Below are positions 6,214 to 44,978 of a stretch of 64,000 nucleotides of DNA, in pieces. The stretch is from an uncultured Spirochaetaceae bacterium (lineage in GTDB: Bacteria; Spirochaetota; Spirochaetia; SZUA-6; Fen-1364): NCBI GenBank assembly GCA_964437385.1, contig CAYTGX010000007.1:103-64102 (forward strand), written 5' to 3'. Both the position numbers and the translations under genes were made by a program. How positions within the stretch are numbered: position 1 is the stretch's first letter; every line of letters starts with the position of its first letter. The notes beneath the pieces are model-generated. The model did not search any database. It saw only the letters and a program-made list of their open reading frames with translations, and had not been told where the DNA came from.

Positions 6214-6232
6214 CCCGCCGGTGGCCGCCGCG

Positions 6233-14644: not shown

Positions 14645-15049
14645 ATGTTGATGGAATACAGGGTGGTGCTGGTCCAGTCCGAAGAGGGTTTCTCGGTGAG
14701 TTGCCCGGCGCTTCGTGGCTGTCATTCGCAGGGCTCCACGATGGATGAGGCGTTGGAGAACATCAAGTCGGCAATCCGCGAGTGGCTGGATGCCGAGTCG
14801 GAAAAGAAGTCGAAACTCACCGTCATAGAGCGGACCGTTCGAGGCACTCCATTCGGGCGTTCAGGACCGCGTGTGGGTTGGAGACTTGAATGCTCAACCT
14901 CGGCTTCCCGCATCGCCTCCGCAGTGAGAGGGCTGCATGCGGGAATGAACTGCACGGGCCGACCCGCTGCATTCTTCGATAGTAAGCGCGATCGCTGTGC
15001 AGATCAATCACGGCGAGGGCGAACTTTTTCTCACATTTCCAGCGGGTGA
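14645..15049 (+). CDS. HicB-like (UPF0150) antitoxin-family protein with an atypical C-terminal extension
   Basis: EYRVVLVQSEEGFSVSCPALRGCHSQGSTMDEALENIKSAIREWLD is the classic HicB/UPF0150 fold signature. After about aa 75 the sequence becomes R/G/S-rich and low in information, and it overlaps vapC tail-to-tail. No HicA partner was found. Confidence 0.65.
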   Translation: MLMEYRVVLVQSEEGFSVSCPALRGCHSQGSTMDEALENIKSAIREWLDAESEKKSKLTVIERTVRGTPFGRSGPRVGWRLECSTSASRIASAVRGLHAGMNCTGRPAAFFDSKRDRCADQSRRGRTFSHISSG

Positions 15050-15462
15050 CGCCAGCGAAGGCCGGGGAAGCGCGCATAGTCCTTGTCCGTGCTGATCCAT
15101 TCACTCCCTGATTCAATGGCCAGCGCGGCGAGGTACGCATCTGGGACGAGGTTGCCCCGCGCATCGCACGTTTCGCAAAGGCGCAGGAAGATGCTCCAAT
15201 GTCGGGGCCCCGGGGTGATCACCACCGCGTGCATGTCCTCACGCACCTGGCTGACGAACGCCATCGCCGTTCGGGCGGGACTGGGCGGATCGAAAATACG
15301 CGGATGGGTGAGGATCCGAAGACAACCGCTGAGCACCAGGTCCGAAACGCCGTATGCCGACCCGCTCCGCATCAGCGCTTCCAGCCACGACTTGTACTCA
15401 TCGTGTCGATCGCATTCTTCCCGATGGGCATAGATGAGAACGTTGACGTCACAGAGAATCAT
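15031..15462 (-). CDS. vapC: type II toxin VapC (PIN domain ribonuclease)
   Basis: MILCDVNVLIYAH... and NLVPDAYLAALAIESGSEWISTDKDYARF are PIN acidic motifs. There is a 4-nt overlap with the upstream antitoxin. Confidence 0.85.
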   Translation of the reverse strand: MILCDVNVLIYAHREECDRHDEYKSWLEALMRSGSAYGVSDLVLSGCLRILTHPRIFDPPSPARTAMAFVSQVREDMHAVVITPGPRHWSIFLRLCETCDARGNLVPDAYLAALAIESGSEWISTDKDYARFPGLRWRHPLEM

Positions 15463-15716
15463 CGAACTCCATCCAGGAGGTCGAGCAACTCGCTTGTGCT
15501 GTCCAGGTTCACCCCCCCCTGGAGGCCCTTTCCCCTGAACGTGACGAGCGCCTGGCGCGCTGTGCTGGTCGCGCCTGATCGACGCAAGGCGAGCGCCGCC
15601 CTGATGGCGTCTTCCACCAGGTCCTTGAGAGTGCGGTTGCTTTCCGCTGCGACTCGCTTCAACTCGACAAGCAGGTCATCCTGGACGTCTATCGTCGTTC
15701 TCATACATAAAAACAT
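15459..15716 (-). CDS. vapB: type II antitoxin VapB
   Basis: MRTTIDVQDDLLVELKRVAAESNRTLKDLVEDAIRAAL is a typical VapB N-terminus. An alternative start is the ATG at 15704. Confidence 0.8.
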   Translation of the reverse strand: MFLCMRTTIDVQDDLLVELKRVAAESNRTLKDLVEDAIRAALALRRSGATSTARQALVTFRGKGLQGGVNLDSTSELLDLLDGVR

Positions 15717-15856
15717 ATAAACTACTCACAAATATGTCAACGCGTACCATGCGACGATTCTCCCCTGGCACGAACTATGCGGACAGAATGTCTTCTCTTT
15801 TTGCTGTTTAGTCAAAACGAAGCCGCAACGAGGATCGTATCAGGCTGGAGGACAGG

Positions 15857-16318
15857 TTAACGCAGGTTCTCCTCAAGTCCCTTGCCGACCTTGTCTCCTG
15901 GGCCAGTTTCCCGCTCCATGAGAGACTCGCTCACCGTGATAGTGGCCTCCGCTCGAATAACGGTGTTCCCTTGGGAAGCCACCGCTTCCAGGATGCAGAG
16001 TCCGGGCTCTTGAGGGGCGGTGAATCTGACAATTTCACCGCTTTGCGCTGAAAGCCTGCCCAGCCCTTCCCTTGTCGTCCAGCGGATTTCCGCTCCCTGT
16101 TCTATAGTGCGCCTGCTCTTGTCGCGCAGGACGCAGCGGAAGCCCCGCTCCGCGTTCACCTTCATGACCACTGATGAAGGGGAGATGAGGGCGCTGAAAA
16201 GCGGTCCTGGATAGTTGAAGAACTCCCGCTCGCCGGCGGGCTCATCAAGGTCCACAGCCTGGTCGTCTTGTGCGCGGCTGTCACCGGCGCTGATGGGCTC
16301 GCTTCCCTCCGCAGTCAC
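15857..16318 (-). CDS. hypothetical protein with an Ig-like beta-rich segment; possibly a gene fragment
   Basis: 153-aa ORF with a GTG start and no spaced SD. The frame stays open upstream to a TAG without an ATG. The segment VVMKVNAERGFRCVLRDKSRRTIEQGAEIRWTTREGLGRLSAQSGEIVRFTAPQEPGLCILEAVASQGNTVIRAEATITV looks like a bacterial Ig-like module. Confidence 0.35.
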   Translation of the reverse strand: MTAEGSEPISAGDSRAQDDQAVDLDEPAGEREFFNYPGPLFSALISPSSVVMKVNAERGFRCVLRDKSRRTIEQGAEIRWTTREGLGRLSAQSGEIVRFTAPQEPGLCILEAVASQGNTVIRAEATITVSESLMERETGPGDKVGKGLEENLR

Positions 16319-16462
16319 TCTCCCCCCCGCGTCGCCTGCCTCTGAAGCGGCCGCGGTGGTATCGGACCCAGCCTTCGCCCCATACGCGGACCCGCCATTG
16401 TGCTATGAATCGCTTGACAGTTCAGTGAAGCATGTTATCATTACATCAGGAGTGTAATCATT

Positions 16463-16711
16463 GTGGTGCGCACACAGATCCAGCTTACCGAGCAGCAGGC
16501 GGAGTCGCTGAAGGCTGCGGCGGCTCGTCGCGGTGTGTCCATGGCCGAGCTGATTCGGCAGTCCATCGACCAGCTGCTGGAGAAATCCGGCGATCTCTCC
16601 GTCAGGGAACTGCGCCTGAAAGCGGCAGCCGCAGCAGGGAGATTCAACTCGGGCCAGAGGGACGTCTCGGTTCGGCATGACAATTACCTTGCAGAGGTGC
16701 TCAAGAAGTGA
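16463..16711 (+). CDS. ribbon-helix-helix (CopG/VapB-type) antitoxin
   Basis: MVRTQIQLTEQQAESLKAAAARRGVSMAELIRQSIDQLL is an RHH fold signature. There is a 4-nt overlap with the downstream PIN gene. Confidence 0.8.
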   Translation: MVRTQIQLTEQQAESLKAAAARRGVSMAELIRQSIDQLLEKSGDLSVRELRLKAAAAAGRFNSGQRDVSVRHDNYLAEVLKK

Positions 16712-17109
16712 CAGCGTTTGTTGATACCTCCGCCCTCTTCGCAGTCCTGGATGCGGATGACCAGATGCACTCCCCGGCCCGCAAGGAATGGGAGCGCCTC
16801 CTGCAGACAGACACGTCATTTCGGACCACCAACTATGTGCTGGTGGAAACCTCTGCATTGCTTCAAAGCCGAATCGGGATGGAAGGCCTGAGGGTGTTTG
16901 CCACGGACATTGCCCCTGTGCTGGAAATCATCTGGGTAGACGCCGGCATGCACCTCTCCGCTCAGCATTCCTTGCTTGTGGCCTCCCGACGGGACTTGAG
17001 CCTCGTGGACTGCGTGAGCTTCGAATCAATGAGGCGGCTGGGAATCGAAAGCGTGTTCTGCTTCGATGCCCATTTTGCCCAGCAGGGATTCCAGGTCCTT
17101 CCCGGATGA
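16708..17109 (+). CDS. vapC: type II toxin VapC (PIN domain)
   Basis: MTAFVDTSALFAVLDADD, then VLVETSALL, then SLVDCVSFESMRRLGIESVFCFDAHF are PIN acidic residues in the canonical order. Confidence 0.85.
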   Translation: MTAFVDTSALFAVLDADDQMHSPARKEWERLLQTDTSFRTTNYVLVETSALLQSRIGMEGLRVFATDIAPVLEIIWVDAGMHLSAQHSLLVASRRDLSLVDCVSFESMRRLGIESVFCFDAHFAQQGFQVLPG

Positions 17110-17138: not shown

Positions 17139-17181
17139 CGCCGGAAGAAACAGCGGCGCGGCGCCGCTATTTCTTCCGGCG
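17139..17181. terminator. long GC-rich hairpin between convergent genes (bidirectional terminator candidate)
   Basis: cgccggaagaaaCagcggcgc g gcgccgctAtttcttccggcg forms a 21-bp stem with one mismatch and a 1-nt loop. The right arm overlaps the last codons of the permease gene. Confidence 0.55.
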
Positions 17182-18120
17182 CGAGATCACGGCCGCGAGG
17201 ATGATGAGTCCCTTGACGATCTGCTGGTAGTAGGACTGGACGTTGAACTGGTTGAGCAGGTTGTCAATGAAGCCGAGAGCCAGGACGCCGCAGAAGGTGC
17301 CGATGGCACCGCCGCTGCCGCCGCTCATGACGCCCCCGCCGATCACCACGGCCGCAATGGCGTCCAGCTCGAACCCGGCACCCACGCTGGGCTGGGCAAT
17401 CCCCAGCCTTGAGGCCAGGATGATTCCTGCGGCACTGGCAAGGAACCCGCAGAGCATGTAGGCAAGGATGAGGTGGCCCTTCACGCTGATGCCCGCCAGC
17501 CTCACCGCTTCCACGTTGCCGCCGATGGCCCCGATGGCCCGGCCCGGGATCGTCCGGTTGAGGAAGAACCAGGCCAGGAAGTAGAAGCCGATCATGATGA
17601 GCGGCGCGATGGGAATTGCCCCTATGAAACCGCCGCCCAGCAGGGATCGGAAAAGGGGATCCACCGGGGACTGCGGGGTCTCCGAGAAGACGTAGGTTGC
17701 GCCGCGCACGACCCCCATCGTGGCCAGCGTAACAATGAAGGGCTGGAGCTTGAACCGGGCAATGAAGAAGCCGTTCGCGAAGCCTATCGCCAGGCCGACA
17801 CACAGGGCAACGAAAATGGCCACGGAGGTCGGCATCACCCTCTGGAGCCCGCAGGCCATGATCCCGCACAGGGCAACGGTACAGCCCACCGACAGGTCGA
17901 TGCCGCCCGTGAGGATGACAATGAGCATTCCAATGCTGATGAGGCCGTTCGTGACGACCTGCCGGGAGATATTGAGAAGGTTCCTTGACGTGAAGAACGT
18001 CTCCAGGAGCAGGGAGCTGACCAGGAACAGGACCGCGAAGATCGCCAGAAAGATGAAGTCGGATGAGCGGATCCTGAAAATCGTCCTGGTCCGCTCGATC
18101 AATGGTGCTGTCGTGATCAT
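17167..18120 (-). CDS. sugar ABC transporter permease (CUT2/RbsC type)
   Basis: 317 aa, about 10 hydrophobic segments, a GGIDLSVG motif, and a C-terminal LIILAAVISRRKK. Typical of BPD_transp_2 permeases. Confidence 0.9.
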   Translation of the reverse strand: MITTAPLIERTRTIFRIRSSDFIFLAIFAVLFLVSSLLLETFFTSRNLLNISRQVVTNGLISIGMLIVILTGGIDLSVGCTVALCGIMACGLQRVMPTSVAIFVALCVGLAIGFANGFFIARFKLQPFIVTLATMGVVRGATYVFSETPQSPVDPLFRSLLGGGFIGAIPIAPLIMIGFYFLAWFFLNRTIPGRAIGAIGGNVEAVRLAGISVKGHLILAYMLCGFLASAAGIILASRLGIAQPSVGAGFELDAIAAVVIGGGVMSGGSGGAIGTFCGVLALGFIDNLLNQFNVQSYYQQIVKGLIILAAVISRRKK

Positions 18121-19637
18121 GCCTTACCCTCCGCCGCGCCGACTCCCGCCGCGAGCTGGAGGAGAACCTCTTCGCTCGCTTTTTCCCGTCCGACATCGCC
18201 TACCAGCCGCCCCTCGCGCATGACGAGGATCCGATCGCTCATGCCCAGGACCTCGAGCATCTCCGAGGAAATGAGAAGCACCCCCACGCCCGCCTCGACC
18301 AGCGCGTTGATGAGATGGTAGATCTCCACCTTCGCGCCGATGTCCACGCCCCGCGTCGGCTCGTCCAGGAGGAGGACCTTCGTAGTGCAGAGCAGCCACT
18401 TGGCCAGGATCACTTTCTGTTGATTGCCCCCGCTCAGAGTCCGCACGTATGCCCCGATCTTCTGCGGCCGCAGCGCGAGCTCCTTGACCTTTCCCGCAAC
18501 CAGCAGCTCCTGCAGCCTGCGGTTCAAGAATATCCCGCGGCTCATGCGGGGAAAAGAAGCGAGGCTCACGTTGTCGCAGATCGTGCCGGTCATCACCAGC
18601 CCGTCCCGCTTGCGGTCCTCCGTCACCAGGGAGATCCCGACGCGCACCGCCTCCCGGGGAGTCCGCGGCCGCAGCGGCTTGCCGTCCAGGCGGATGCTGC
18701 CTGACGTGGGGGGCTCTGCCCCGAATATGCTCCTGGCAACGGCGGTCCTCCCGCTTCCGACGAGGCCGAACATGCCCAGGACTTCGCCGCGGTGCAGGGA
18801 AAACTCGATGCCGCTGAACTCTCCTTCGCGGGAGAGGGCGTGGACCGAGAGCACTTCATCACCGATCCTCGTCCGGCGCTTTGGATAGATTTCCTCGAAG
18901 GAGCGGCCTACCATCATGCGGATCAGCTCATTCTGATCGATCGAATCGCGCCGTACCGTCCCGACGACTTCGCCGTCCCTGAGGACGGTGATACGATCGG
19001 CAATCTCGAAGACCTCCTCGAGCCGGTGCGAGATGTACAGGATGAGCGTCTTCTCTGACTTGAGCCGCCGAATGAGGGCGAAGAGGAGAGAGAGCTCGTC
19101 CTTGGAGAGGACCGCCGAGGGCTCGTCCAGGATCAGCACGCTCGGCTTTTCGGCCAGCGCCTTGGCGATCTCCACCACCTGCTGCTGCGAGATGCTCAGG
19201 CGAAAGACGCGGGTGCGCGCATTCAGGCCGGCGAACCCCAGCTCGGCAAGGAGGCCCCGCGCCGTCTCCCAGGCCCTGGGCCAGTCGATCACCAGGCGAT
19301 GCCTGCCGCGGGTCGGCAGCTTCCCCATGAGGATGTTCTCCGCGATGGTCAGCTGGGGCACAAGGCTGAACTCCTGGTGCACGGCCCGTATGCCCAGCGC
19401 ATTCGCTTGGTGCGGGGAGCGCATTATCACCTTCGTCTGCCCCAGTGAAATGCTTCCCGCGTCGGGCTGCACAGCGCCGGAGAGGATATTCATCAGCGTG
19501 GATTTGCCGGCGCCGTTTTCCCCCACCAGGACGTGGACCTCGCCGAGCTCGGCAGACAGGCTCACGTCCTTCAGGGCAACGGTGCCGCCATACTTCTTGT
19601 TGATGCCCTCCATCCGGAGGAAAGCATCAGCATTCAT
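18117..19637 (-). CDS. sugar ABC transporter ATP-binding protein, tandem NBDs (CUT2/RbsA type)
   Basis: Walker A motifs GENGAGKST and GLVGSGRT, signature LSGGNQQK, 506 aa. There are 4-nt overlaps with both neighbours. Confidence 0.9.
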   Translation of the reverse strand: MNADAFLRMEGINKKYGGTVALKDVSLSAELGEVHVLVGENGAGKSTLMNILSGAVQPDAGSISLGQTKVIMRSPHQANALGIRAVHQEFSLVPQLTIAENILMGKLPTRGRHRLVIDWPRAWETARGLLAELGFAGLNARTRVFRLSISQQQVVEIAKALAEKPSVLILDEPSAVLSKDELSLLFALIRRLKSEKTLILYISHRLEEVFEIADRITVLRDGEVVGTVRRDSIDQNELIRMMVGRSFEEIYPKRRTRIGDEVLSVHALSREGEFSGIEFSLHRGEVLGMFGLVGSGRTAVARSIFGAEPPTSGSIRLDGKPLRPRTPREAVRVGISLVTEDRKRDGLVMTGTICDNVSLASFPRMSRGIFLNRRLQELLVAGKVKELALRPQKIGAYVRTLSGGNQQKVILAKWLLCTTKVLLLDEPTRGVDIGAKVEIYHLINALVEAGVGVLLISSEMLEVLGMSDRILVMREGRLVGDVGREKASEEVLLQLAAGVGAAEGKA

Positions 19638-21094
19638 GATTCTTCGCGCTCCTTGGCAGGAGGAAATGCATTGTGGATGATGATGGCCTTCTGCTCCGTC
19701 ATGTCCGTCAGTGTATCGTGCAGAGCTTCCCGTCCATGACCGCTCATCTTCGTGCCTCCGAACGGCACGTTCTCCGCACGGAACGCCGAGGACCAGTTGA
19801 TGATCACGCCTCCGGCCTCCAGCCGGCTCGCAATGGTCATTGCCCGGGAGATATCATTGGTGAAAACCGCGGCCTGCAGGCCGAAGGGGCTGTCGTTGGC
19901 CATGCGGATGGCCTCGTTGATGTCCGAGAAAGCAGCCAGCGGGGCCACCGGGCCGAACGTCTCTTCATGGAACAGCGGCGCCGAGAGAGGAACGTCGGAG
20001 AGAACTGTCGGAACGATGAACGCGCCGCGGCGGGCTCCGCCGCACAGGATCTTCGCTCCCGCCTTCACCGCCTCGACAATCGAGTCCTCGACCTTTTTTG
20101 CAGCGCTCTCCGAAATCAACGGTCCGCAGTCAGTGTCCTCGGCGAGCTGGTCCCCCACCTTCAGGTGAGCCGCCTTCGAGGCCAGCAGCGTGCAGAACTC
20201 GCTGTAGATGCGCCGATCGATGAAGATCCGCTTGACGGCGCAGCAGATCTGGCCGTTCCCGCGGGCAAGACGGCCCAGGACGACGGCATCCGTCGCCTTG
20301 TCGATGTCGGCGTCCGCGCAGACGATCATTGCGTCGTTCCCGCCGAGCTCGAGGTGGATCTTCTGCATGGTCTTCGCGCCGAGCTCGGTGAGCCTGATGC
20401 CAACGGAGGTGCTGCCCGTGAGGGAGAGAAGGCGCACGACGGGGCTTCGGGCCAGACGCTCTCCGACCAGCTCGCCCGGGCCGGTGATCATCTGGTGCGC
20501 CCCGCGCGGGAGGCCTGCTTCCTCGAGGATCTGGGCGATCTTGAGCAGCGCGAGCGGACAGGCACTGGGCGGCTTCGCTATGACCGCGTTGCCGGCGGCC
20601 AGTGCCGCGGCGGCCTTGTGGGCGTACAGCTCCACTGGGTAGTTGAAGGGAACGATCGCTGCTACGACCCCGAGGGGCTGCCTGATGGTCATGGCGAAGT
20701 GGCGCTCATTGCCGGGAACCGCATCCATCGGGATCGTCCGGCCGAACATCCGTCGGCCCTCCTCGGCGAAACCGCTGAACAGGCGTCCCGCCACCTCGAC
20801 CTCGGCGCGGGTCTGGCCGATCGGCTTGCCATTCTCCCGGGCCAGCAGCCTCGCGAGCTCTTCATTCCTGGATTGCATGGCCGCCGCCGCGCGGATCAGG
20901 ACGGCCGAGCGCTCGTGTGCGGGCAGCGCCCGCATCCGCGCGCTGCCCTGCGCCGCGGATTTCAAGGCACGGTCGACGTCAGCTTCGGTCGCCAGGGGAA
21001 CCTCGTCGATGATTTCCCCGGTCCCGGGGTTGCGGACCGCCGTGGTCCTGCGGTCAGCGGAATCGGTCCACTGGCTTTCGATGAGCATTTTCAT
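19634..21094 (-). CDS. NAD(P)-dependent aldehyde dehydrogenase
   Basis: FNYPVELYAHKAAAALAAGNAVIAKPPS, ELGGND and GQICCAVKR (catalytic Cys) are ALDH family motifs. Confidence 0.9.
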   Translation of the reverse strand: MKMLIESQWTDSADRRTTAVRNPGTGEIIDEVPLATEADVDRALKSAAQGSARMRALPAHERSAVLIRAAAAMQSRNEELARLLARENGKPIGQTRAEVEVAGRLFSGFAEEGRRMFGRTIPMDAVPGNERHFAMTIRQPLGVVAAIVPFNYPVELYAHKAAAALAAGNAVIAKPPSACPLALLKIAQILEEAGLPRGAHQMITGPGELVGERLARSPVVRLLSLTGSTSVGIRLTELGAKTMQKIHLELGGNDAMIVCADADIDKATDAVVLGRLARGNGQICCAVKRIFIDRRIYSEFCTLLASKAAHLKVGDQLAEDTDCGPLISESAAKKVEDSIVEAVKAGAKILCGGARRGAFIVPTVLSDVPLSAPLFHEETFGPVAPLAAFSDINEAIRMANDSPFGLQAAVFTNDISRAMTIASRLEAGGVIINWSSAFRAENVPFGGTKMSGHGREALHDTLTDMTEQKAIIIHNAFPPAKEREES

Positions 21095-21149: not shown

Positions 21150-22109
21150 CTAGAACACGCTTTCAGGGAAATAGAACCTGGCGACGTTGTCAATGGTGAT
21201 GATGGGCGAGGCCATGACGGTGTTCTTCTCCGAGGTGGCGCCGGCGAGAATCGACATGAGGCGGGTGAAGCTGGCACGGCCGATCTGATCGGAGCTGTTG
21301 AGCCCGGTCGCGGCGTAGTTGCCCTTCTTGGCGATCTCCTGGAGGGCGGCCTTCTCTCCGTCCACTCCGCAGATGAAGATCTTGTCGGTGCGCTTGGCGT
21401 CGGCGATGGCCTTCTGGGCGCCGAGGCCCATGGAGTCATTCTCCGCGAAGACGGCGTCAATCTTGTCGTACTTGGCGAGCAGGTCCTCCATGAGCTTGAA
21501 GCCGCCGTCCGAGCTCCAGCCGCCGTAGTTCGGGGCTGCGATCGTCACGATCTTGGTCTTCTTGAGCTCGGAGAGCACGCCGTTGGTGCGGTTGTAGCCG
21601 ATCGAGTTGTCCGCGGGTCCGCCCTTCAGGATCACCACGGTCCCGACGCCCTTGAGCCGCTTCGCGATATAGGCGCCGACCTGCTGGCCGATGGCCAGAT
21701 TGTCCGGGCCGACCCAGCTGGTGTACTGATCGCTGCTCGGGCCCGTGAACATCCTGTCGACGAGGACGACGGGGACGTTGGCCCTCTTGATCGCGTCAAG
21801 GACCTCGGGAGCCGACTCGAGCCAGGCGCCGCTCAAGATGATGCCTTTGACGTTCTGTGCCAGAACGTCTTCCACGTCGGAGGTCAGCTTCTGCGCGTCG
21901 CCCTTGGCGTCGGTGATGATGACCTTGATGTTGGTGAAGTGGGCAGCTTCCTGCTTCACCGCCTCGGCCATGCCGATGAAGTACGGGCTGCTCTGCGCGA
22001 GGTTCACCATGGCGATCTTGATTTGCTTTGCCTGGGCGGTGACGGCCATGGCAGAGAATACCATCGCGACCACGGCCAGGATGAGCACGAGAGACCGGAT
22101 CTTTCTCAT
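21150..22109 (-). CDS. sugar ABC transporter periplasmic binding protein (RbsB-like, CUT2)
   Basis: Signal peptide MRKIRSLVLILAVVAMVFSAMAVTAQA. Periplasmic-binding-protein type I layout with VVLVDR and GADN-like motifs. Confidence 0.9.
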   Translation of the reverse strand: MRKIRSLVLILAVVAMVFSAMAVTAQAKQIKIAMVNLAQSSPYFIGMAEAVKQEAAHFTNIKVIITDAKGDAQKLTSDVEDVLAQNVKGIILSGAWLESAPEVLDAIKRANVPVVLVDRMFTGPSSDQYTSWVGPDNLAIGQQVGAYIAKRLKGVGTVVILKGGPADNSIGYNRTNGVLSELKKTKIVTIAAPNYGGWSSDGGFKLMEDLLAKYDKIDAVFAENDSMGLGAQKAIADAKRTDKIFICGVDGEKAALQEIAKKGNYAATGLNSSDQIGRASFTRLMSILAGATSEKNTVMASPIITIDNVARFYFPESVF

Positions 22110-22171
22110 GAAATGTCTCCTCCTTCACGATTACTCACCGGAAAACTTCCGGTTGGGATCTCATAGGAAAA

Positions 22172-22186
22172 GCAATAAGCGTGCCA
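22172..22186 (-). promoter_or_regulatory. sigma-54 (-24/-12) promoter for the RbsB-ALDH-RbsA-RbsC operon
   Basis: The minus strand reads TGGCAC-gctta-TTGCT, a perfect match to TGGCAC-N5-TTGCW, about 63 nt upstream of the ATG at 22109. Confidence 0.75.
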
Positions 22187-22269
22187 TGGAAGGAGATTTT
22201 TCCCATGCATAGTCGCTATGCAGCAATTCACTATGGCATAGAATTTTAAAGACATGACACAAATAAAAA

Positions 22270-22298
22270 TTGACAGCACGTTTGCGAGCCTCTATAAT
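22270..22298 (+). promoter_or_regulatory. sigma-70 promoter for the NtrC-like/HK operon
   Basis: TTGACA (22270-22275), a 17-nt spacer, then TATAAT (22293-22298). Both hexamers are consensus. It lies about 60 nt upstream of the ATG at 22357. Confidence 0.6.
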
Positions 22299-22301
22299 TC
22301 T

Positions 22302-22318
22302 TGAGTAATTTTTACTCA
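22302..22318. promoter_or_regulatory. palindromic operator/UAS candidate TGAGTAA-ttt-TTACTCA
   Basis: Perfect 7-3-7 inverted repeat. Additional GTGAGTAA half-sites lie at 22334-22341 (+) and 22131-22138 (-). It sits about 125 bp upstream of the sigma-54 -24 element and directly downstream of the sigma-70 -10. Confidence 0.5.
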
Positions 22319-22356
22319 CACTGCGAAATCGAAGTGAGTAAATCCGGTGGTGAGAT

Positions 22357-23679
22357 ATGGGAACAGGCATCCTTGTCATCGACGACAAGGTGAAGGTCTG
22401 CAAAAGCCTGGCGCAGAATTTCGAGCACCTCGGCTATCGCGCGGCCATCGCCACCAGCAGCAGGGAAGCGCTCGCGGCGTTCGCAGCGGGCGGGATCGAT
22501 GTTGTGCTCCTCGACATCATGCTGGGCGAGGAGAGCGGCATTGACGTATTGAAGAGGCTCCAGGCGGTCGACAAGACTGTCCCGGTGATCATGATCACTG
22601 CATTCGCCTCTGTGGAGACTGCCGTGCTCTCCCTCAAGCTCGGCGCCTTCGACTACGTGAAGAAGCCTCTTGATTTCGACGACCTCCTCATGACGGTGGA
22701 GAAGGCCCTCGAGTTCTCCCGGCTCCAGGAGGAGAACACCAACCTCAAATCCCGGCTCCGCGCGCTGTCCGCGACGATCGTTACCGGGGACCCCCTGATG
22801 ATCGCGCTCAGGAACAAGATGGAAAAGCTGGCGGTGACGGACCTGCCGGTACTGATCGACGGGGAGAGCGGGACGGGCAAGGAAGTCTTCGCCGATTATA
22901 TCCACGCCGCCTCGTCCCGCAGCGCGCGGCCGATGGTCAAGGTCAACTGCGTGGCCCTGCCCGAGTCCCTCCTGGACAACGAGCTTTTCGGGCATGAGAA
23001 GGGCGCCTACACGGGAGCCGATGCGGTCTTCAAGGGCCTCTTCGAGACGGCGGACGGGAGCACCCTCTTTCTCGATGAGATCGGCGACATGCCGCTCGGG
23101 ATCCAGGCGAAGATCCTGCGGACGCTGCAGAACAACGAGATCCGGCGGCTGGGAGGGAGCGCAACGATCAAGGTCGATGTGAGGTTCATCGCCGCCACGA
23201 ACAAGGACCTCGTGGACCTGACCCGGAAGAATCTCTTCCGCGAGGACCTGTACTATCGCCTCAACGCCGCCGTCCTCTCAGTCCCCTCGCTGCGGGAGCG
23301 CAAGGGGGACATCCCGCTCCTCGTCGAGCACTTCCTTTCGGAGCGCGCCGTCAACGGCCGCAAAGAGCTGGCACCCGAGGTTGCGGCGAGGTTCCAGGCC
23401 TACGACTGGCCGGGGAACGTGCGCGAGCTGAAGAACGTCGTGAACTATGCCACGGCGATATCCCTGAACGAGCGCATCGAGATGGAGGATCTGCCGGCCC
23501 ATTTCCTGGGCCAGGGCTATGCCGCCGAGCCTGCCGATATCCGCCAGGAAATGGAGAGAGACCTGATCGTGCGGGTCCTCCAGAGCACGAGGTACAATCG
23601 CTCAAGGACGGCGGAGATACTGAACATGAGCCGCAAGACCCTCTACAGCAAGATGGCGAAGTATGGCCTCAACGCCTGA
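22357..23679 (+). CDS. sigma-54-dependent response regulator (NtrC family: REC-AAA+-Fis HTH)
   Basis: REC domain (ILVIDDK...VVLLDIMLGEESG), AAA+ Walker A GESGTGKE, sigma-54 contact loop GAYTGA, and C-terminal HTH RSRTAEILNMSRKTLYSKMAKYGL. Confidence 0.9.
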   Translation: MGTGILVIDDKVKVCKSLAQNFEHLGYRAAIATSSREALAAFAAGGIDVVLLDIMLGEESGIDVLKRLQAVDKTVPVIMITAFASVETAVLSLKLGAFDYVKKPLDFDDLLMTVEKALEFSRLQEENTNLKSRLRALSATIVTGDPLMIALRNKMEKLAVTDLPVLIDGESGTGKEVFADYIHAASSRSARPMVKVNCVALPESLLDNELFGHEKGAYTGADAVFKGLFETADGSTLFLDEIGDMPLGIQAKILRTLQNNEIRRLGGSATIKVDVRFIAATNKDLVDLTRKNLFREDLYYRLNAAVLSVPSLRERKGDIPLLVEHFLSERAVNGRKELAPEVAARFQAYDWPGNVRELKNVVNYATAISLNERIEMEDLPAHFLGQGYAAEPADIRQEMERDLIVRVLQSTRYNRSRTAEILNMSRKTLYSKMAKYGLNA

Positions 23680-25558
23680 GCCGCCCCGCGCCGGTCCCCC
23701 GGGGGGAAACGAGATCCTGCGCCTCTCGGACATTTCCCTCGACTACGGCCAGGTCGTGGCGCTGAAGGACGTGAACCTTGCCCTCTACCCCTCAATGATC
23801 CACGCCCTGGTCGGAGAGCACGGCGCGGGCAAGTCCTCCCTCGGCATGGTCATCAGCGGCAGCCTGCGGCCCAGGACGGGGACGATACAGTTCGCCGGCC
23901 GGCGGCTCGACTCGCTCAGCATCCCCGTGGCGCATCGCCTGGGCATCGAGATGGTCTACCAGCAGGTACAGCTCAATGACTATTACTCCGTCGCGGAGAA
24001 CATCTTCTTCCTGGCCAAGGAGACGACCCGGCACGGACTGCTCAACCAGAGAGTCGTCGCCGCGAAGGCCCGGTCATTCCTGGACCTCCACGACTTCAGC
24101 CTGAACCCGGCCGCCATGGTCAGGAACCTCAACCTGCCCGATCGTGTGCTCATCTCGATCCTGGCCGCACTGCAGAAGAGGCCGAAGCTCCTGATCCTGG
24201 ACGAAGCCCTCGAAAAGCTCTCCTCCATCAACCTGCCCAAGGTGGTCCGCGTCCTTGACGCAATGAGATCGGACGGCATGTCCATCCTCTTCATCACGCA
24301 CCGTATCGAGGACGTCTACGACTTCGCGGACCGGGTGAGCATCGTGAAGAACGGCGAGATCCTGGTGACCGACGAGGTCGGCCATATCGACAAGATGAAC
24401 CTGCTGCGGTTGACCTACACGCAGGTGTACTCCCTGGAGGACTCCGGCAACCGCAAGCGCGAGTTCAACCAGTACCTCAAGTACTACGAGGCGGTGCTCC
24501 AGAAGCTGCCCGTCAACCTCATCGTCGTGGACGCCGAAGAGCGGGTAAAAATCGTCAACGAGCTGTGCAAGGAATACTTCCACATCGAAGGCGTGATGTC
24601 CTCCCATCGCCCCCTTGCAGCACTCCTCGGGGAAGAGAACGGTGAGGTCCTGGCCCTCATCCGCGAGGCGCTCCGCTCCGACGAGGGCGGCGAGTTCTAC
24701 CAGGTGCCCCTGACGATCGGCGGGGTGGAGACGATCAGCAACGTGAGGACCCTCCCGATCTTCGACGAAGGCCAGCGGATCGGCACCATCATCATCATCG
24801 AGGACATCTCCGAGTTCGACAGGCTGCAGAAGCAGGTCATCCTGTCCGAAAAGCTCGCGTCGGTCGGGCTCCTGGCCGCCGGGGTGGCGCACGAGATCAA
24901 CAACCCTCTGGAGATCGTCTACAACTACCTGAAGTACATCAAGCTGTCCTTCGATGACGCGAAGCTGCACGGCATGGTCGACGAGCTCCACGAGGAGATC
25001 ACCTACATTGCCGGCATCGTCCGCAACCTCCTCTCCCTCTCCGGTACGGCTGAGACGGGGCGGGAGGAGACGGACCTGAACGAGATGATCGGGAGCATCA
25101 TCGGGCTTCTTCGGCACAGCGCCCATGACAAGGAGATCTCGATCTCATTCCTGTCGAGCGAAAAGAAGCTCCTGCTCAAGGTCAACCGCAACGAGATAAA
25201 GCAGGTGCTTCTCAACCTGGTGAAGAACAGCTTCGAGGCCATGCCCGGCGGGGGCGACATCACGATCGGGACTTCCCTTGCCGCGGACGAAAAGGGGCGA
25301 CCCTGCGCGACGATCGAGTTCACCGATACGGGCCCGGGCATCCAGGGCGCGAACCTCAACAACGTGTTCATCCCGTTCTATTCGACCCGCAAGGGCAAAG
25401 GGGACAACGTCGGGCTGGGGCTCTCCATCTGCTATGGAATCATCAAGCGGCACGACGGGTTCATGCGCGTCAAAAACATCGAGCACTCGGGATGCCAGTT
25501 TACGATCACGCTCCCCCTGACCCCGGACGATTCACTCGGCGGCGCGGGGACCTGGTAG
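23663..25558 (+). CDS. soluble sensor histidine kinase with an N-terminal ABC-ATPase-like domain (NBD-PAS-HisKA-HATPase_c)
   Basis: N-terminus: GEHGAGKSS (Walker A), YQQ (Q-loop), LLILDEA (Walker B), FITHR (H-loop); the signature position reads NLNLPDRV. C-terminus: AHEINNPLE (H-box), LVKNSFEAM, DTGPGI, GLGLSI. Overlaps the regulator gene by 17 nt. Confidence 0.85.
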   Translation: MASTPEPPRAGPPGGNEILRLSDISLDYGQVVALKDVNLALYPSMIHALVGEHGAGKSSLGMVISGSLRPRTGTIQFAGRRLDSLSIPVAHRLGIEMVYQQVQLNDYYSVAENIFFLAKETTRHGLLNQRVVAAKARSFLDLHDFSLNPAAMVRNLNLPDRVLISILAALQKRPKLLILDEALEKLSSINLPKVVRVLDAMRSDGMSILFITHRIEDVYDFADRVSIVKNGEILVTDEVGHIDKMNLLRLTYTQVYSLEDSGNRKREFNQYLKYYEAVLQKLPVNLIVVDAEERVKIVNELCKEYFHIEGVMSSHRPLAALLGEENGEVLALIREALRSDEGGEFYQVPLTIGGVETISNVRTLPIFDEGQRIGTIIIIEDISEFDRLQKQVILSEKLASVGLLAAGVAHEINNPLEIVYNYLKYIKLSFDDAKLHGMVDELHEEITYIAGIVRNLLSLSGTAETGREETDLNEMIGSIIGLLRHSAHDKEISISFLSSEKKLLLKVNRNEIKQVLLNLVKNSFEAMPGGGDITIGTSLAADEKGRPCATIEFTDTGPGIQGANLNNVFIPFYSTRKGKGDNVGLGLSICYGIIKRHDGFMRVKNIEHSGCQFTITLPLTPDDSLGGAGTW

Positions 25559-25686
25559 CGCGCACGGGTCGCGTCGACCTGCTCCGCCCGGGCCTACAGA
25601 TCCGTATGGTCCGAAAGTGCGGTTTGCCGCACCAGGGCCGTGGCACTTTCGTTGCGCGTGAACTCCAATGGTGATATAAGAGCCTC

Positions 25687-26166
25687 ATGCCGATTCACGA
25701 ACTGCAGAATTATCGCTACCGGGGAGCTCGAGCCCTGGTGCTTCTCCATGGGCAGGCCCTGCGGGGATTGCTTCCGGTCTGGCAGAGAGCGAAGGCCGCA
25801 CAAGTCCGGCTGCCTTCTACTCAGGATCCCAACTATGCGTCGCTGGAATCGCTTCTCCATCACGCCCTGCGGGCCGCGCGCGGCTACATGACATGGCTGT
25901 GTGAGAAGCTCGGCCTGCCGGATCCCGGGATCGATCCGGAGCCGGAAGCCTCCCGCGTGGAGCAGGAAGTGGAGAGCTACATCGAGCACCTGTTGGCGCG
26001 CTGGCGTCTGCCTTTGGCGGACGTGGAGGAAACGCGTTTCCAGACCATCCACAAGTCGCGCTGGGGAGAGGACATGAGCCTGGAGGGCATGCTGGAGCAT
26101 GCCGTGATGCATCCCCTCCGGCACCGGTTCCAGCTGGAGGAGCTCATGGAGGCCTCTGAAGCTTAG
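25687..26166 (+). CDS. DinB-superfamily protein
   Basis: C-terminal MLEHAVMHPLRHRFQLEEL resembles the DinB/YfiT His-rich helix. 159 aa. Preferred over the A/G-rich antisense ORF 25594..26508. Confidence 0.65.
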   Translation: MPIHELQNYRYRGARALVLLHGQALRGLLPVWQRAKAAQVRLPSTQDPNYASLESLLHHALRAARGYMTWLCEKLGLPDPGIDPEPEASRVEQEVESYIEHLLARWRLPLADVEETRFQTIHKSRWGEDMSLEGMLEHAVMHPLRHRFQLEELMEASEA

Positions 26167-30797: not shown

Positions 30798-32903
30798 CTA
30801 TGTTTCGAGCTCCACGATCGTGTAGATTCCGACATGCTTCAGGGCCAGCTTGTTCTTCCGAAGTGAGACGGAAATTGCAGGATTCTCCGGGAAGCTGTGG
30901 ACCTTTGTTCCCTTTGCCTCGAACGCGAGCTCAAAAGAGGCATCCGTGGGATCGATCCTGTGCGTGCCCGGATTGTAGTTGTAATTGACAATGTGCAGGA
31001 GGAACCTGTTCTTGTCCCTGTCCTTGTGCACGGCAATGCCGAACTTTTCGGAGTCTTTCGCGCTGACCACTCCCTTGCTTTTCGCCAGTTCGGCAACAAG
31101 GAGCCCCATGTCCTGGGCCGCATAGCTCCTGCAGGAGGAGAGAGCCTTCACGCTGCGCGCCAGCGTGATCACGCTGGCGCCGGCCTGAGCGAATGCCTGG
31201 ATCGCCTTTGCGCTCTGGTCATCCATCACGAATGCATCCGGAACAATCACTTTTTTGTACGCAGAAAGCCGGGCGGGCGTCAGGACCTCGTCCGGACTGT
31301 TGAACAGGACGTTGTACAGGACATGACGATTGCTCAGGCTCTGCACAAGCTCGAAGAAGCTGCGGAACCGGCCGTCCCGGGCAAATGCACCCTGCCTGCC
31401 CAGCTCCTCCCCTTCGGCAAACTCCACCGGCACGATCTCCTGGTCATCCGGTTCCGTCAGCAGGTTCTCATACGCGGAAAGCGCGTCGTAGACCACGGCG
31501 ATATCTGCGCAGGGATTCTTCGGGAAAAGGCTCTCGCGCTCGCTGAGCCAGGAACCGAGCTTCTTCAGCACTCTGAGATCCGGCCAGAACGCGTCCTTGA
31601 CCTGGTTCTGAAGCCAGGAACCATAGGGAAACGATACGTGGAACCCGTGCGCCATCGGCTCGAGGGCGAACACGATGAACCTGTCATTGATGTTGTTCTT
31701 GATATCGTCCAGCATGTCCCTGACATACTGGTTCGGATCTTCGACAAAGCAGGATTCTTTTCCGTTCAGCCAGCCAAAGGCGAACTTGTACCAGCCGTCC
31801 TGGCGGAGCTCGATGCTCGTCTTCTCTCCTGCAAGGATGTCCAGGTGCTTCTTGCACGGCCACGAATACGGGTAGCACTGGAAGAGGTTTGCCGTGACCC
31901 TCATGGCCTTTCCCCGTGTGCGGGTGGAGTACTCCCGCAGGTGGCGGGAGAGCTCTCGTACAACCCATTCTATGCTTGCCATCTGCATGTCGGTGAAATT
32001 CCTGAAAAGCGGTATCTTCCACCTGTTGTTCCCGTTGGAGGCCACGAGGTCCTTGTCCTTGTATCCCCGGCCGCGCAGATACTGCCTGTAGTCGAAGTCC
32101 GCACTATCACCCGCATCCTGGGGCAGCGGGAGAGCGTGCGCCGTGATGTACGCCCTGAACTTGTCCATGCATTCGCGGCAGAAGCATCCGGCGTTCTGCA
32201 GCAGGTGCTTCTGCGTATCATACTCGTCTATGTGCAGGCCGCCTGCCCCGGCGTCACACATCATTTCGATGTCGCGTTTCATGTAGCGGAGGTACGAGTC
32301 CTTGTTGGAGCACGGAGAGTAGCATTTGTGGTCATGTCCCGGAGCCATCAGCCACGCGGAGAGGATATTCCTCCCTTCAAGAGAGACAGCCTTGAACTCC
32401 TCAAGAAAATCTTCGACCTTCTTTCCCTTGTAGTCCAGCAGCCCGTCGGGAAAATACTTTTCAATGGGAGAAAAGATCTTCGGGTACGCGTTGGTGGAGA
32501 GCTCCCGCATGCCCACGTATTTTCTATTCCGGGAGGCGCCCCTCAGGATATTGAGGGACAGGAGCTCTGATTCGTCGTCGCTGAGCTCCGCCCCGAACTC
32601 CCAGAGCTGGGCTTTCCACAGCACGGAGAAGACCTCGATCCCCCTTTTTGCGCACTCCTGGCAGAACTCCTTGTCATTGACGAAGCCGTACAACCGCAGC
32701 CGCGGGGGAATGACATCATTGGCCTCGCGGTCCAGGTACGGCAGGCCGATTGCCCCGCTGCCCAGGCATGACCATATCAGGGTGTTGGCCTTGATCTCTT
32801 CGATGTCTTCGATCATGTGCATGTTCTTCATTGGAAGACTGGGATGGTAGTTCCACATGTCCCTGAACCAGCCCATGAAATACAAACCTCGCAGCATATT
32901 CAT
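30798..32903 (-). CDS. large hypothetical protein, possibly a glycoside-hydrolase-like TIM barrel with a GH42-like C-terminal domain
   Basis: 701-aa ORF with coding-like composition. It contains GGLHIDEY and a CFCRECMDKF cysteine motif. The C-terminal KKVIVPDAFVMDDQSAKAIQAFAQAGASVITLAR resembles the trimerisation/GATase-like domain of GH42 enzymes. The family assignment is only a guess. Confidence 0.4.
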   Translation of the reverse strand: MNMLRGLYFMGWFRDMWNYHPSLPMKNMHMIEDIEEIKANTLIWSCLGSGAIGLPYLDREANDVIPPRLRLYGFVNDKEFCQECAKRGIEVFSVLWKAQLWEFGAELSDDESELLSLNILRGASRNRKYVGMRELSTNAYPKIFSPIEKYFPDGLLDYKGKKVEDFLEEFKAVSLEGRNILSAWLMAPGHDHKCYSPCSNKDSYLRYMKRDIEMMCDAGAGGLHIDEYDTQKHLLQNAGCFCRECMDKFRAYITAHALPLPQDAGDSADFDYRQYLRGRGYKDKDLVASNGNNRWKIPLFRNFTDMQMASIEWVVRELSRHLREYSTRTRGKAMRVTANLFQCYPYSWPCKKHLDILAGEKTSIELRQDGWYKFAFGWLNGKESCFVEDPNQYVRDMLDDIKNNINDRFIVFALEPMAHGFHVSFPYGSWLQNQVKDAFWPDLRVLKKLGSWLSERESLFPKNPCADIAVVYDALSAYENLLTEPDDQEIVPVEFAEGEELGRQGAFARDGRFRSFFELVQSLSNRHVLYNVLFNSPDEVLTPARLSAYKKVIVPDAFVMDDQSAKAIQAFAQAGASVITLARSVKALSSCRSYAAQDMGLLVAELAKSKGVVSAKDSEKFGIAVHKDRDKNRFLLHIVNYNYNPGTHRIDPTDASFELAFEAKGTKVHSFPENPAISVSLRKNKLALKHVGIYTIVELET

Positions 32904-32968
32904 TCCTCCCCATATGATCGTCGGCCGCCCGTTTGCCGAGGGATTCTTCCAGCCGTATATTAACTAGT

Positions 32969-32984
32969 TGGGCATGTTTTTGCA
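32969..32984 (+). promoter_or_regulatory. possible sigma-54 promoter upstream of the second RbsB-like operon
   Basis: TGGgcat-gttt-TTGCA has GG and GC at the correct 12-nt register. The -12 TTGCA is perfect and the -24 is only TGG. It lies about 34 nt upstream of the ATG at 33018. Confidence 0.35.
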
Positions 32985-33017
32985 CGCCCATCAAATATCC
33001 CGCCCAGGAGGTTCCTC

Positions 33018-33944
33018 ATGAAAAAGAAACTGCTGTTTGTGCTGATCATGCTCATGGCGCTTCCGCTCGTTGTCTTCGCCGGAGGCACCAAGGAAGGACA
33101 GCCATCAGGCCAGATCACTATTGGCCTGACGCTTCCCGGTCTCCAGTTTCCGTTCTTCGTAACCATGAAGAACGATTTTGACGCGGCGGCAGCAAAGCTC
33201 GGTGTGAAGGTTGTCTTCATAGATGCGCAGAACGACTCCACCAAGCAGGCGGCTGCCATGGAGAACTTCGTGGCACAGAAGGTCAGCGGAATCCTGATCT
33301 CCCCCATGACGACTGACTCGCTGGTTCCTTCTATAGAAGCGGCTGTCAAGGCGGGTATTCCCGTGGCCACTGTCGACCGCAAGGCGAATACGGATGCAGT
33401 CCTGGTCCACATCGGGGCGGACAACGTGGAAGGCGGCCGTGCGGCGGCCCGCTACGTCGCGGCCAAGCTCAATGGCAAGGGCAACGTGATCGAGCTCGAA
33501 GGCACGCCGGGTGCTTCCCCCGCAATCGACCGCAAAAAGGGCTTCGACGAGGTGATTGCCCAGAACCCTGGCATCAAGATCCTCGTGAGCCAGGCTGCTG
33601 ACTTCAACCGCGCCAAGGCAAACTCCACCATGGAGAACCTGATGCAGGCGTACCCTGCTTTCGATGCCGTGTTCGGCGCCAACGACGAGATGATCATCGG
33701 AGCCATCGAGGCCATGTCCGCCGGCGGCATCGACCCCTCCAAGAAGGTGACCGTCGGCTACGACGCCACCACTGACGCCCTGGACTACATCAAGCAGGGC
33801 AAGCTGGGCGCCACCGTCGACCAGTTCCCCGGCAAGCAGGCGGCACAGGCCCTGCAGGCCCTCGTCGACAACATCAAGAGCAAGACGATGCCCGCACAGA
33901 AGGTCGTCTACCTCTCGCCGAACACCGTGACGTCAGCCAAATAG
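33018..33944 (+). CDS. ribose/sugar ABC transporter periplasmic binding protein (RbsB-like)
   Basis: Signal peptide MKKKLLFVLIMLMALPLVVFAGG. GILISPMTTDSLVPSIEAAVKAGIPVATVDR and GADNVEGGRAAARY are typical of RbsB-type proteins. Confidence 0.9.
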   Translation: MKKKLLFVLIMLMALPLVVFAGGTKEGQPSGQITIGLTLPGLQFPFFVTMKNDFDAAAAKLGVKVVFIDAQNDSTKQAAAMENFVAQKVSGILISPMTTDSLVPSIEAAVKAGIPVATVDRKANTDAVLVHIGADNVEGGRAAARYVAAKLNGKGNVIELEGTPGASPAIDRKKGFDEVIAQNPGIKILVSQAADFNRAKANSTMENLMQAYPAFDAVFGANDEMIIGAIEAMSAGGIDPSKKVTVGYDATTDALDYIKQGKLGATVDQFPGKQAAQALQALVDNIKSKTMPAQKVVYLSPNTVTSAK

Positions 33945-33969
33945 GCACCGCGTCTTCCTTCGACCGTCG

Positions 33970-34004
33970 AGGCCGGCGCTGGACGAGCGCCGGCCTTTCT
34001 GTTT
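33970..34004 (+). terminator. rho-independent terminator/attenuator after the binding-protein gene
   Basis: aggccggcgct ggacg agcgccggcct (11-bp perfect stem) followed by ttctgttt. Confidence 0.6.
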
Positions 34005-34011
34005 ACCCTGT

Positions 34012-44972: not shown

Positions 44973-44978
44973 TCTGAA

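Follow-up and report, generated by a model that had tools for sequence, protein, structure and literature searches.

A large family of soluble histidine kinases with a captured CUT2 nucleotide-binding domain, encoded beside sigma-54 regulators and CUT2 importers

We analysed a 64,000-nucleotide stretch of contig CAYTGX010000007.1 from an uncultured Spirochaetaceae bacterium (here, the window) and focused on a histidine kinase gene that overlaps the end of a sigma-54-dependent regulator gene and is divergent from a sugar transporter operon. The kinase begins with a nucleotide-binding domain (NBD) of the ATP-binding cassette (ABC) class. The protein is a true member of a large family whose soluble histidine kinases have a captured CUT2 NBD1 as input, and the linkage of this family to a sigma-54 regulator and a CUT2 importer is obligate. 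A preliminary description of the locus, read from the letters alone, had drawn attention to the fusion and had suggested that the NBD reports on the transporter. The features of the regulator and kinase genes are as follows (window coordinates, strand, feature, and evidence).

22357..23679, + strand: response regulator with receiver (REC), sigma-54 AAA+ (GAYTGA loop), and HTH_8 domains (Pfam; NCBIfam, AtoC/NtrC-like)
23663..25558, + strand: histidine kinase gene, 631 amino acids (aa), NBD-PAS-HisKA-HATPase_c, predicted soluble (open reading frame [ORF], Pfam, orthologue alignment, AlphaFold2 model)
23714..24412, + strand: NBD-like input domain, aa 18-250, CUT2 NBD1 type (Pfam, NCBIfam, BLASTP, Foldseek)
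23813-23836, + strand: Walker A, GEHGAGKS, aa 51-58 (sequence)
23960-23962, + strand: Q-loop, Q100 (sequence)
24128-24145, + strand: degenerate signature, LNLPDR, aa 156-161 (sequence)
24188-24205, + strand: Walker B and catalytic Glu, LLILDE, aa 176-181 (sequence)
24299-24301, + strand: H-loop, H213 (sequence)
24413..24481, + strand: helix after the NBD and linker, aa 251-273 (family alignment, high conservation)
24482..24820, + strand: cytoplasmic PAS domain, aa 274-386 (Pfam PAS_4 and PAS; Foldseek, YF1 [4gcz])
24821..25528, + strand: kinase core, comprising the dimerization and histidine phosphotransfer (DHp)/HisKA domain and the catalytic and ATP-binding (CA) domain with N, G1, F, and G2 boxes (Pfam; 118-sequence alignment)
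24890-24892, + strand: phospho-acceptor H410 in the H-box AHEINNPLE (sequence, invariant in alignment)

The domain order that the preliminary description had expected was recovered by Pfam, which placed ABC_tran at aa 34 to 183 (E 1e-20; 75.2 bits against a cutoff of 25), PAS_4 and PAS at aa 274 to 386, HisKA at aa 402 to 460 (30.4 bits; cutoff, 26.9), and HATPase_c at aa 509 to 620 (72.5 bits; cutoff, 26.4). Among NCBIfam models, residues 18 to 261 aligned to positions 1 to 243, that is, to NBD1, of the CUT2 ATPases (YtfR, 3.5e-45; also AraG, XylG, AlsA, GguA, and RbsA), and residues 273 to 623 aligned to AtoS (9e-60) and also to ZraS. No curated NCBIfam model scored at its cutoff for the kinase. 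The best CUT2 equivalog score was 154 bits against a cutoff of 850, and the AtoS equivalog (NF008468) reached 202.7 bits against 646, over the C-terminal 350 aa only. With an H-box and the CA boxes present, and with H410, N522, D555, G557, G559, G584, and G586 invariant across a 118-sequence alignment of the family, the protein is a bona fide HisKA-class sensor histidine kinase. In 19-aa Kyte-Doolittle windows, we found no transmembrane segment or extracytoplasmic domain in it; the highest window mean was only 1.39 and fell on the DHp helix, and we therefore agree with the earlier reading in taking the kinase to be soluble.

Structure prediction gave the same division of the protein. The AlphaFold2 model had a mean predicted local distance difference test (pLDDT) score of 88.9, with most of the NBD above 95; this model rests on the 118-sequence alignment, as prediction from the single sequence gave a pLDDT of 32. 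With Foldseek, the C-terminal half resembled the PAS-DHp-CA kinase YF1 (4gcz; E 7e-25) and also the cytoplasmic domain of ZraS. The N-terminal domain resembled LptB over ∼235 residues (target TM-score, 0.86 to 0.88; ∼3 Å root mean square deviation), and complete ABC NBDs from FtsE, MacB, MetN, and MalK matched it as well (target TM-scores against the LptB, FtsE, and MacB NBDs together, 0.80 to 0.88). A search of the PDB returned no solved CUT2 ATPase or transporter below 1e-30.

The operon divergent from the regulator and kinase genes encodes a complete CUT2 transporter and an aldehyde dehydrogenase.

21150..22109, - strand: periplasmic sugar-binding protein, Peripla_BP_4, RbsB-like (Pfam, NCBIfam, orthologue synteny)
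19634..21094, - strand: aldehyde dehydrogenase (Pfam, NCBIfam, orthologue synteny)
18117..19637, - strand: complete CUT2 ATPase with tandem NBDs, RbsA/AraG-like (Pfam, NCBIfam, BLASTP)
17167..18120, - strand: CUT2 permease, BPD_transp_2, RbsC-like, the proposed docking partner of the kinase NBD (Pfam, NCBIfam)

The aldehyde dehydrogenase gene lies between the binding-protein and ATPase genes, a placement kept in all orthologous loci; its best NCBIfam match was lactaldehyde dehydrogenase (481 bits, below the cutoff of 650). This gene content hints that the substrate of the transporter may be a deoxy-sugar or an aldehyde-bearing compound.

We compared the kinase NBD with the ATPase in this operon. 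The NBD1 of this ATPase matched the kinase at 33% identity and 57% positives over 248 aa (BLASTP; E 4e-38), and its NBD2 matched at 21% identity. The likeness to NBD1 that had been noticed by eye is thus real, but its description as almost residue for residue was an overstatement. More broadly, the N-terminal 250 aa of the kinase are homologous to NBD1 of the CUT2 ATPases (TC 3.A.1.2: RbsA, AraG, XylG, MglA, YtfR), with which they share GE(H/N)GAGKS, the Q-loop, the Walker B Glu, an x-x-L-S/T D-loop, the H-loop, and the helix that follows. Unlike these tandem ATPases of ∼500 aa, the kinase has NBD1 only, carries PAS-DHp-CA in place of NBD2, and has a degenerate, acidic signature; it is a kinase, not a transporter subunit. 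In a neighbour-joining distance tree (without support values), all kinase NBDs formed one clade that was sister to transporter NBD1, with NBD2 outside. From this topology, it appears that an NBD1 was captured once, long ago. The kinase NBD was no closer to the neighbouring ATPase than to other CUT2 NBD1s, and we rejected the idea that it is a recent duplicate of that neighbour, since the tree places it in the old monophyletic clade.

The motifs of the kinase NBD fell as the preliminary description had listed them, with Walker A, Q-loop, Walker B, and H-loop kept and the signature degenerate; the A-loop Tyr, read from the sequence, is Y29. The LSGGQ signature (C-loop) of ABC proteins is required for formation of the ATP-sandwich dimer and for hydrolysis, and at this position the kinase has LNLPDR. 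The corresponding position in NBD1 of the neighbouring ATPase reads LSISQQ, and NBD2 of the same ATPase carries the canonical LSGGNQQK. CUT2 NBD1 signatures are themselves noncanonical and lack the two Gly residues, so the kinase signature is best seen as a further degeneration of a motif that was already atypical. After Walker B, the kinase has A-L-E-K and the family x-L-E-K-L, in contrast to P-[ST]-x-x-L in transporter ATPases. A conserved motif, IDKMNLLRLTYTQ, begins at aa 242 and spans the end of the NBD and the linker that follows. This linker takes the position of the NBD1-NBD2 linker (the "MVGR" region) of CUT2 ATPases, and the helix after the NBD is kept across the family alignment as IDK.NLI.LAYTQ, continuing into the PAS domain. 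Topologically, PAS-DHp-CA stands where NBD2 stands in the transporter protein.

In a scan of one genome per species, full-length orthologues (65 to 90% identity) were present in 11 Spirochaetota metagenome-assembled genomes (MAGs) from peat, fen, and soil, assigned to Rectinemataceae and Treponemataceae. The same six genes stood in the same arrangement in every orthologous locus whose contig extends far enough. Mean pairwise identity among the 12 orthologues was 74% for the NBD, 73% for the PAS domain, and 72% for the CA domain, and this equality indicates that the NBD is under purifying selection. All of the nucleotide-binding motifs were invariant among the 12, and the degenerate signature was kept as LN[LF][PS][DE]R.

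The family extends well beyond these orthologues. A HMMER search of 1.84 billion cluster representatives (50% identity level) gave at least 150 matches, and the last of the matches listed were still full-length. Well over 100 proteins of ∼600 to 625 aa aligned in one stretch from residue ∼18 to residue ∼619, at 51% down to 28% identity among the matches listed (E 1e-188 to 1e-66). The ABC_tran/(PAS)/HisKA/HATPase_c architecture was found by Pfam in each of the 10 diverse members scanned. With the family-specific NBD-PAS junction as a probe, we recovered 242 further relatives from JGI metagenomes, and the fused gene was uninterrupted in 67 full-length metagenome loci. The cultured Marispirochaeta aestuarii carries a member (WP_319415987.1 and WP_083052034.1). 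The architecture is thus not rare and defines a large, unnamed family.

These observations also bear on whether the fusion is an artefact of a chimeric assembly, a missed stop, or a frameshift, by which part of an ABC ATPase became joined to a common type of PAS kinase. Frameshifted fragments do occur among database entries, in small number, but they are broken copies of the same fused gene. The same uninterrupted ORF is present in the 11 independent MAGs, in M. aestuarii, in the cluster representatives, and in the 67 metagenome loci, and the NBD-PAS junction is among the best-conserved segments of the family. The 11 independent MAG loci and the more than 100 full-length cluster representatives exclude a chimeric assembly, and we regard the chance of an artefact of any of these kinds as negligible.

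Across 122 family members, the Walker A Lys was kept in 117, the Walker B Asp in 118, the catalytic Glu in 109, the Q-loop Gln in 91, and the H-loop His in 86. The signature had the consensus L-[SNPK]-x-[SAPE]-[DEQ]-[RQK], without Gly-Gly, and Asp or Glu replaced the signature Gln in 92 of the 122.

Database labels for members of the family vary and include "ATP-binding cassette domain-containing protein" (M. aestuarii, Spirochaetota MAGs, and a Planctomycetota MAG), "histidine kinase" (a member from candidate division KSB3), "PAS domain S-box-containing protein," and "AtoS." Annotation pipelines thus label these proteins inconsistently, and no family model exists. Full-text literature searches returned no paper on an NBD-kinase fusion (an Arthrospira match was a domain-count table only), in keeping with the earlier statement that no characterised example was known. 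Within the reach of our searches, no characterised case of an ABC NBD built covalently into a kinase as its input came to light, although proteins of this kind have long appeared in automated annotation.

To describe the genomic setting of more distant relatives, we inspected 12 nonorthologous members singly (among them a KSB3 member, two paralogues from the same genome, a variant of 851 aa, and members at 28 to 47% identity). A sigma-54 regulator gene lay directly upstream of the kinase gene in all 12 contexts, and a complete CUT2 transporter (Peripla_BP_4 binding protein, ABC_tran ATPase, and BPD_transp_2 permease) was immediately adjacent in 11, either divergent or downstream. In the twelfth, the sequence available is a 7-kb contig, of which only 0.9 kb remains beyond the kinase gene. 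We also annotated 80 metagenome loci with local HMMs. The regulator was directly upstream in 70/70 loci that had upstream sequence. Among loci with 5 kb or more on both flanks, CUT2 ATPase and permease genes were found in 19/19, and among those with 5 kb or more on one flank, they were found in 36/40; each of the four loci without them has under 2 kb of upstream sequence. The question raised by the preliminary description, whether homologues always neighbour CUT2 transporters, can thus be answered with essentially always, across phyla and with differing catabolic genes. The accessory genes varied from locus to locus (FGGY kinases, iron-containing alcohol dehydrogenases, short-chain dehydrogenases/reductases, GH4, GH31, aldolases, a glycyl-radical enzyme, and aldehyde dehydrogenases), from which we conclude that the systems serve different substrates.

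Several individual loci add detail. One 5.38-Mb genome (ERZ21831104) carries two paralogous kinase-regulator pairs, each next to a CUT2 transporter of its own; one locus includes a glycyl-radical enzyme with its activase, and the other iron-containing alcohol dehydrogenases. These separate transporters imply insulated, parallel systems. The 851-aa member (P0119; locus L038, 8001-10556) has two HisKA stretches in Pfam and an extended region between the NBD and the catalytic domain, and a sigma-54 regulator and a CUT2 transporter are still beside it. In two variant loci (L105, locus positions 4307-7151, and L106), the kinase gene is followed by a CUT2 system with a single-NBD, FrcA-type ATPase that carries a canonical LSGGE signature. 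This ATPase is 265 aa long with a canonical Walker A, and URO-D-like and GH31 genes come after the CUT2 system; in the NBD tree, the single-NBD ATPase of these loci branches below both the NBD1 and the kinase-NBD clades. The window itself contains a second complete CUT2 transporter (binding protein, tandem ATPase, and permease; 32964-36487, + strand) without an NBD-kinase beside it, and we therefore consider that the kinase serves a single transporter and is not shared by CUT2 systems in general. This second operon is divergent from a 701-aa ORF (30798..32903, - strand) that has only a faint GH42-like match.

The regulator and kinase genes overlap by 17 nt (22357..23679 and 23663..25558), as had been noted from the sequence. 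The regulator contains Response_reg, Sigma54_activat (217.8 bits), and HTH_8 domains (Pfam) and aligned to AtoC (1e-127) and NtrC (NCBIfam). The intergenic region between the two operons holds the following features.

22172-22186, - strand: sigma-54 promoter (-24/-12), TGGCACGCTTATTGC, of the transporter operon (consensus scan, orthologue conservation)
22270..22298, + strand: sigma-70-type promoter, TTGACA-17-TATAAT, of the regulator-kinase operon (12/12 consensus, kept in orthologous loci)
22303..22341, no strand assigned: three conserved copies of a GAGTAA/TTACTCAC/GTGAGTAA motif, a candidate regulator site (11-locus alignment)
22138..22152, no strand assigned: near-invariant palindrome, CCGGAAAACTTCCGG (11-locus intergenic alignment)

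The sigma-54 consensus TGGCAC-N5-TTGC had 2 matches in the window against 0.15 expected, and the GG and GC elements of the promoter at 22172-22186 were kept in the orthologous loci (11-locus intergenic alignment). The earlier assignment of a divergent, sigma-54-promoted operon of RbsB-like, aldehyde dehydrogenase, RbsA-like, and RbsC-like genes therefore stands. The regulator domains, the GAYTGA loop, and the -24/-12 promoter at the target are those of a sigma-54-dependent two-component system, and we infer, with strong support, that the regulator-kinase pair activates the adjacent operon of binding protein, dehydrogenase, ATPase, and permease. Relative to the sigma-54 promoter, the TTACTCAC/GTGAGTAA copies are ∼117 to 170 bp upstream, and they closely follow the -10 box of the sigma-70 promoter. 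Such spacing is the classical position of an enhancer-binding protein site that also autoregulates, and we take the three GAGTAA-type copies as a candidate site of this kind for the sigma-54 activator. We also considered a different palindrome, TGCATAG-N3-CTATGCA (22206-22222), as the regulator site but rejected it, as the orthologous loci lack it.

Closer to the binding-protein gene, between its start codon and the sigma-54 promoter, the perfect palindrome CCGGAAAACTTCCGG was nearly invariant, loop included, in the 11 loci. It could be a repressor operator or a hairpin in the 5' untranslated region. We saw no covariation in it across the 11 orthologous loci, which favours a protein-binding site, and Rfam found no RNA family in the window. 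The second exact sigma-54 consensus in the window, TGGCACTTTCGTTGC (25641-25655, + strand), begins 83 nt past the kinase stop codon and upstream of an ORF of 159 aa (25687..26166) with a weak DinB-family match. Neither this ORF nor TGGCACTTTCGTTGC was found downstream of the kinase gene in the orthologous loci, and TGGCACTTTCGTTGC was rejected as a second target of the regulator because it is not conserved.

How a kinase without a membrane segment might sense the state of the transporter beside it can be framed from these features. The full mechanism that we favour, though tentatively and at somewhat less than an even chance, is that the kinase NBDs dock on the permease. Since the kinase NBD has kept every motif that acts on nucleotide in cis, it would still bind ATP. 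The twin NBDs of a kinase dimer would probably not form a canonical ATP sandwich, because the signature is degenerate and its acidic residue would oppose the gamma-phosphate of the partner's ATP. The permease dimer would receive the two NBDs at its coupling helices, the normal seat of the tandem ATPase. Once a sugar-loaded binding protein reached the periplasmic face, the NBDs would change in spacing or orientation, and the helix after the NBD, together with the PAS domain, would relay this change to the DHp helices and switch the kinase on. In this way, the membrane part of the transporter would act as the transmembrane receptor for a kinase that has no membrane segment of its own.

Some observations argue for such contact. 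In ABC importers, the stretch after the Q-loop (V-x-E-N-[IL]) contacts the coupling helices, as known from MalK. This stretch is retained in the kinase NBD, and its retention with the Q-loop, since both serve coupling to the transmembrane domain, supports docking on the permease. Further, the transporter partners appear to have been exchanged over time, because the correlations of two-component with transporter protein distances are low (0 to 0.36; 34 loci). As the CUT2-only association persists despite this exchange, physical contact with a conserved CUT2 component is the simplest account. Docking is also consistent with the obligate linkage and with the NBD1 ancestry of the domain.

Other observations weigh against docking, and contact between kinase and permease is at this stage a proposal. 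Mirror-tree and partial-correlation analyses of distance matrices from the 34 loci gave no specific NBD-permease co-evolution (partial r, 0.04, controlling for the kinase core), although the known ATPase-permease pair, used as a positive control, scored only 0.15 to 0.37, so that the test has little power to separate the models. The low correlations between two-component and transporter proteins point the same way, as does the poor conservation of the NBD helical subdomain across the family. Every associated transporter keeps its own complete ATPase, with which the kinase NBD would have to compete for the permease. Adjacency alone is equally explained by a kinase that merely regulates the operon, and the PAS domain could be the real sensor.

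The last two points lead to an alternative in which the PAS domain would bind the imported sugar or a catabolite in the cytoplasm, and the NBD would be a stand-alone ATP/ADP-binding regulatory or dimer-organising module, so that the kinase would be nucleotide gated in a manner similar to KdpD. On this view, the regulon and the ancestry of the domain would be the only reasons for the link to CUT2, without physical contact. The absence of an NBD-permease co-evolution signal and the complete ATPase kept by every transporter fit this alternative, as do the conservation of the cis nucleotide-binding motifs with loss of the trans-acting signature and the presence of a PAS domain in most members. Divergence within the kinase is moreover greatest in the PAS domain (mean distance, 1.25, compared with 1.09 in the NBD and 0.87 in the core), as would be expected if ligand specificity varied between systems. 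However, the parts of a PAS domain that usually contact ligands have no conserved residues in the family, and the retained Q-loop and VxEN stretch are those used for coupling to the transmembrane domain in ABC proteins. Sensing by the PAS domain would also leave unexplained why a domain of CUT2 NBD1 type keeps exclusively to the neighbourhood of CUT2 transporters in different phyla and at identities as low as 28%, with partners exchanged. On balance, we consider this alternative the main rival, though less likely than docking.

The signature motifs allow for another possibility, in which the kinase senses flux. Here the kinase NBD, with its Walker A and catalytic residues intact but without a usable signature, would pair transiently, head to tail, with an NBD that has a canonical signature (NBD2 in the case of a tandem ATPase, or the lone NBD of the ATPase in variants like L105) and would read the ATPase cycle in a manner similar to MalK-MalT. 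The motifs of the kinase NBD are those required of an NBD1 that is to complete one consensus site together with an NBD2-type partner (LSGGNQQK), and the variant with the LSGGE signature places such a partner beside the kinase. In the tandem ATPases, though, NBD2 is covalently tethered to its own NBD1, which puts an intermolecular competitor at a disadvantage. Distances between the kinase NBD and the N1 and N2 domains of the ATPase were uncorrelated (r, 0.00 and 0.14), and flux sensing of this kind seems improbable.

Within the docking reading, the kinase may replace the ATPase on a fraction of the permeases only, giving a non-transporting receptor composed of binding protein, permease dimer, and kinase dimer. 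In such a pseudo-transporter, the crippled NBDs would turn the substrate-dependent conformational change of the permease into histidine kinase activity. We regard this particular assembly as possible but rather doubtful. If it is true, it would represent a new class of transmembrane signalling, with an ABC permease as the membrane domain of a two-component sensor. The fusion also points to a possible plug-in sensor, for which any pair of CUT2 binding protein and permease would set the specificity. The docking reading gives a simple genetic prediction, namely, that signalling needs the permease and the binding protein.

The arrangement can be placed among known systems. Sensing of transporter state is a long-standing question, and in the known cases (MalK-MalT, PstB-PhoU-PhoR, and BceAB-BceS) the contacts are noncovalent and hard to map. 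Transporter-coupled signalling is represented by BceS-BceAB, PhoR-PhoU-PstB, and DcuS-DctA, with MalK-MalT as a paradigm. As in these four, the kinase system described here lacks an extracytoplasmic sensor of its own, is linked to a transporter, and probably controls transporter expression. The difference is that in those systems separate proteins touch through other domains, whereas here the NBD is covalently joined to the kinase. A transporter motor domain has thus been joined to a kinase, kept across phyla, and retained beside the same class of importer, and the resulting protein is defined, soluble, and tractable for the study of coupling between an NBD and a kinase.

KdpD is a sensor kinase with an N-terminal nucleotide-binding input domain that has Walker A and B motifs (PMC2714519). 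The kinase resembles it in having a P-loop nucleotide-binding domain N-terminal to the histidine kinase of a transporter operon. Unlike KdpD, which is a membrane protein with a non-ABC N-terminal domain and an OmpR-type regulator, the kinase is soluble and its regulator is sigma-54 dependent, and Pfam found no KdpD or Usp domain in it at E values up to 0.01. In its PAS-HisKA-HATPase_c core, its NtrC-family regulator, and its sigma-54-dependent output, the system is like AtoS/AtoC and ZraS/ZraR, but AtoS and ZraS are membrane kinases that take their input from periplasmic or HAMP modules and lack an NBD; the scores were below the equivalog cutoffs (202.7 against 646 and 426.6 against 714). Kinases that sense binding proteins (LuxP-LuxQ, TorT-TorS, ChvE-VirA, and XylFII-LytS) make contact through a periplasmic domain of their own. 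If docking is true, a sugar-binding protein of the Peripla_BP class would be the primary ligand receptor, as in these four pairs, but unlike LuxQ, TorS, VirA, and LytS, the kinase has no periplasmic domain and would need the ABC permease as a relay.

Other genes in the window were also noted. Directly beyond the permease gene, at 14645-17109, lies a cluster of small ORFs that appear toxin-antitoxin-like from their translations, with PIN/VapC-like ORFs at 15031..15462 and 16708..17109, each with a short upstream partner, and a HicB-like ORF at 14645..15049. A third ABC system, with one ATPase and two permeases, occupies 44973-48608. The window also encodes an unrelated hybrid histidine kinase of 942 aa (58080-60905, + strand), with an N-terminal HisKA_7TM domain followed by GAF, HisKA, HATPase_c, and receiver domains.

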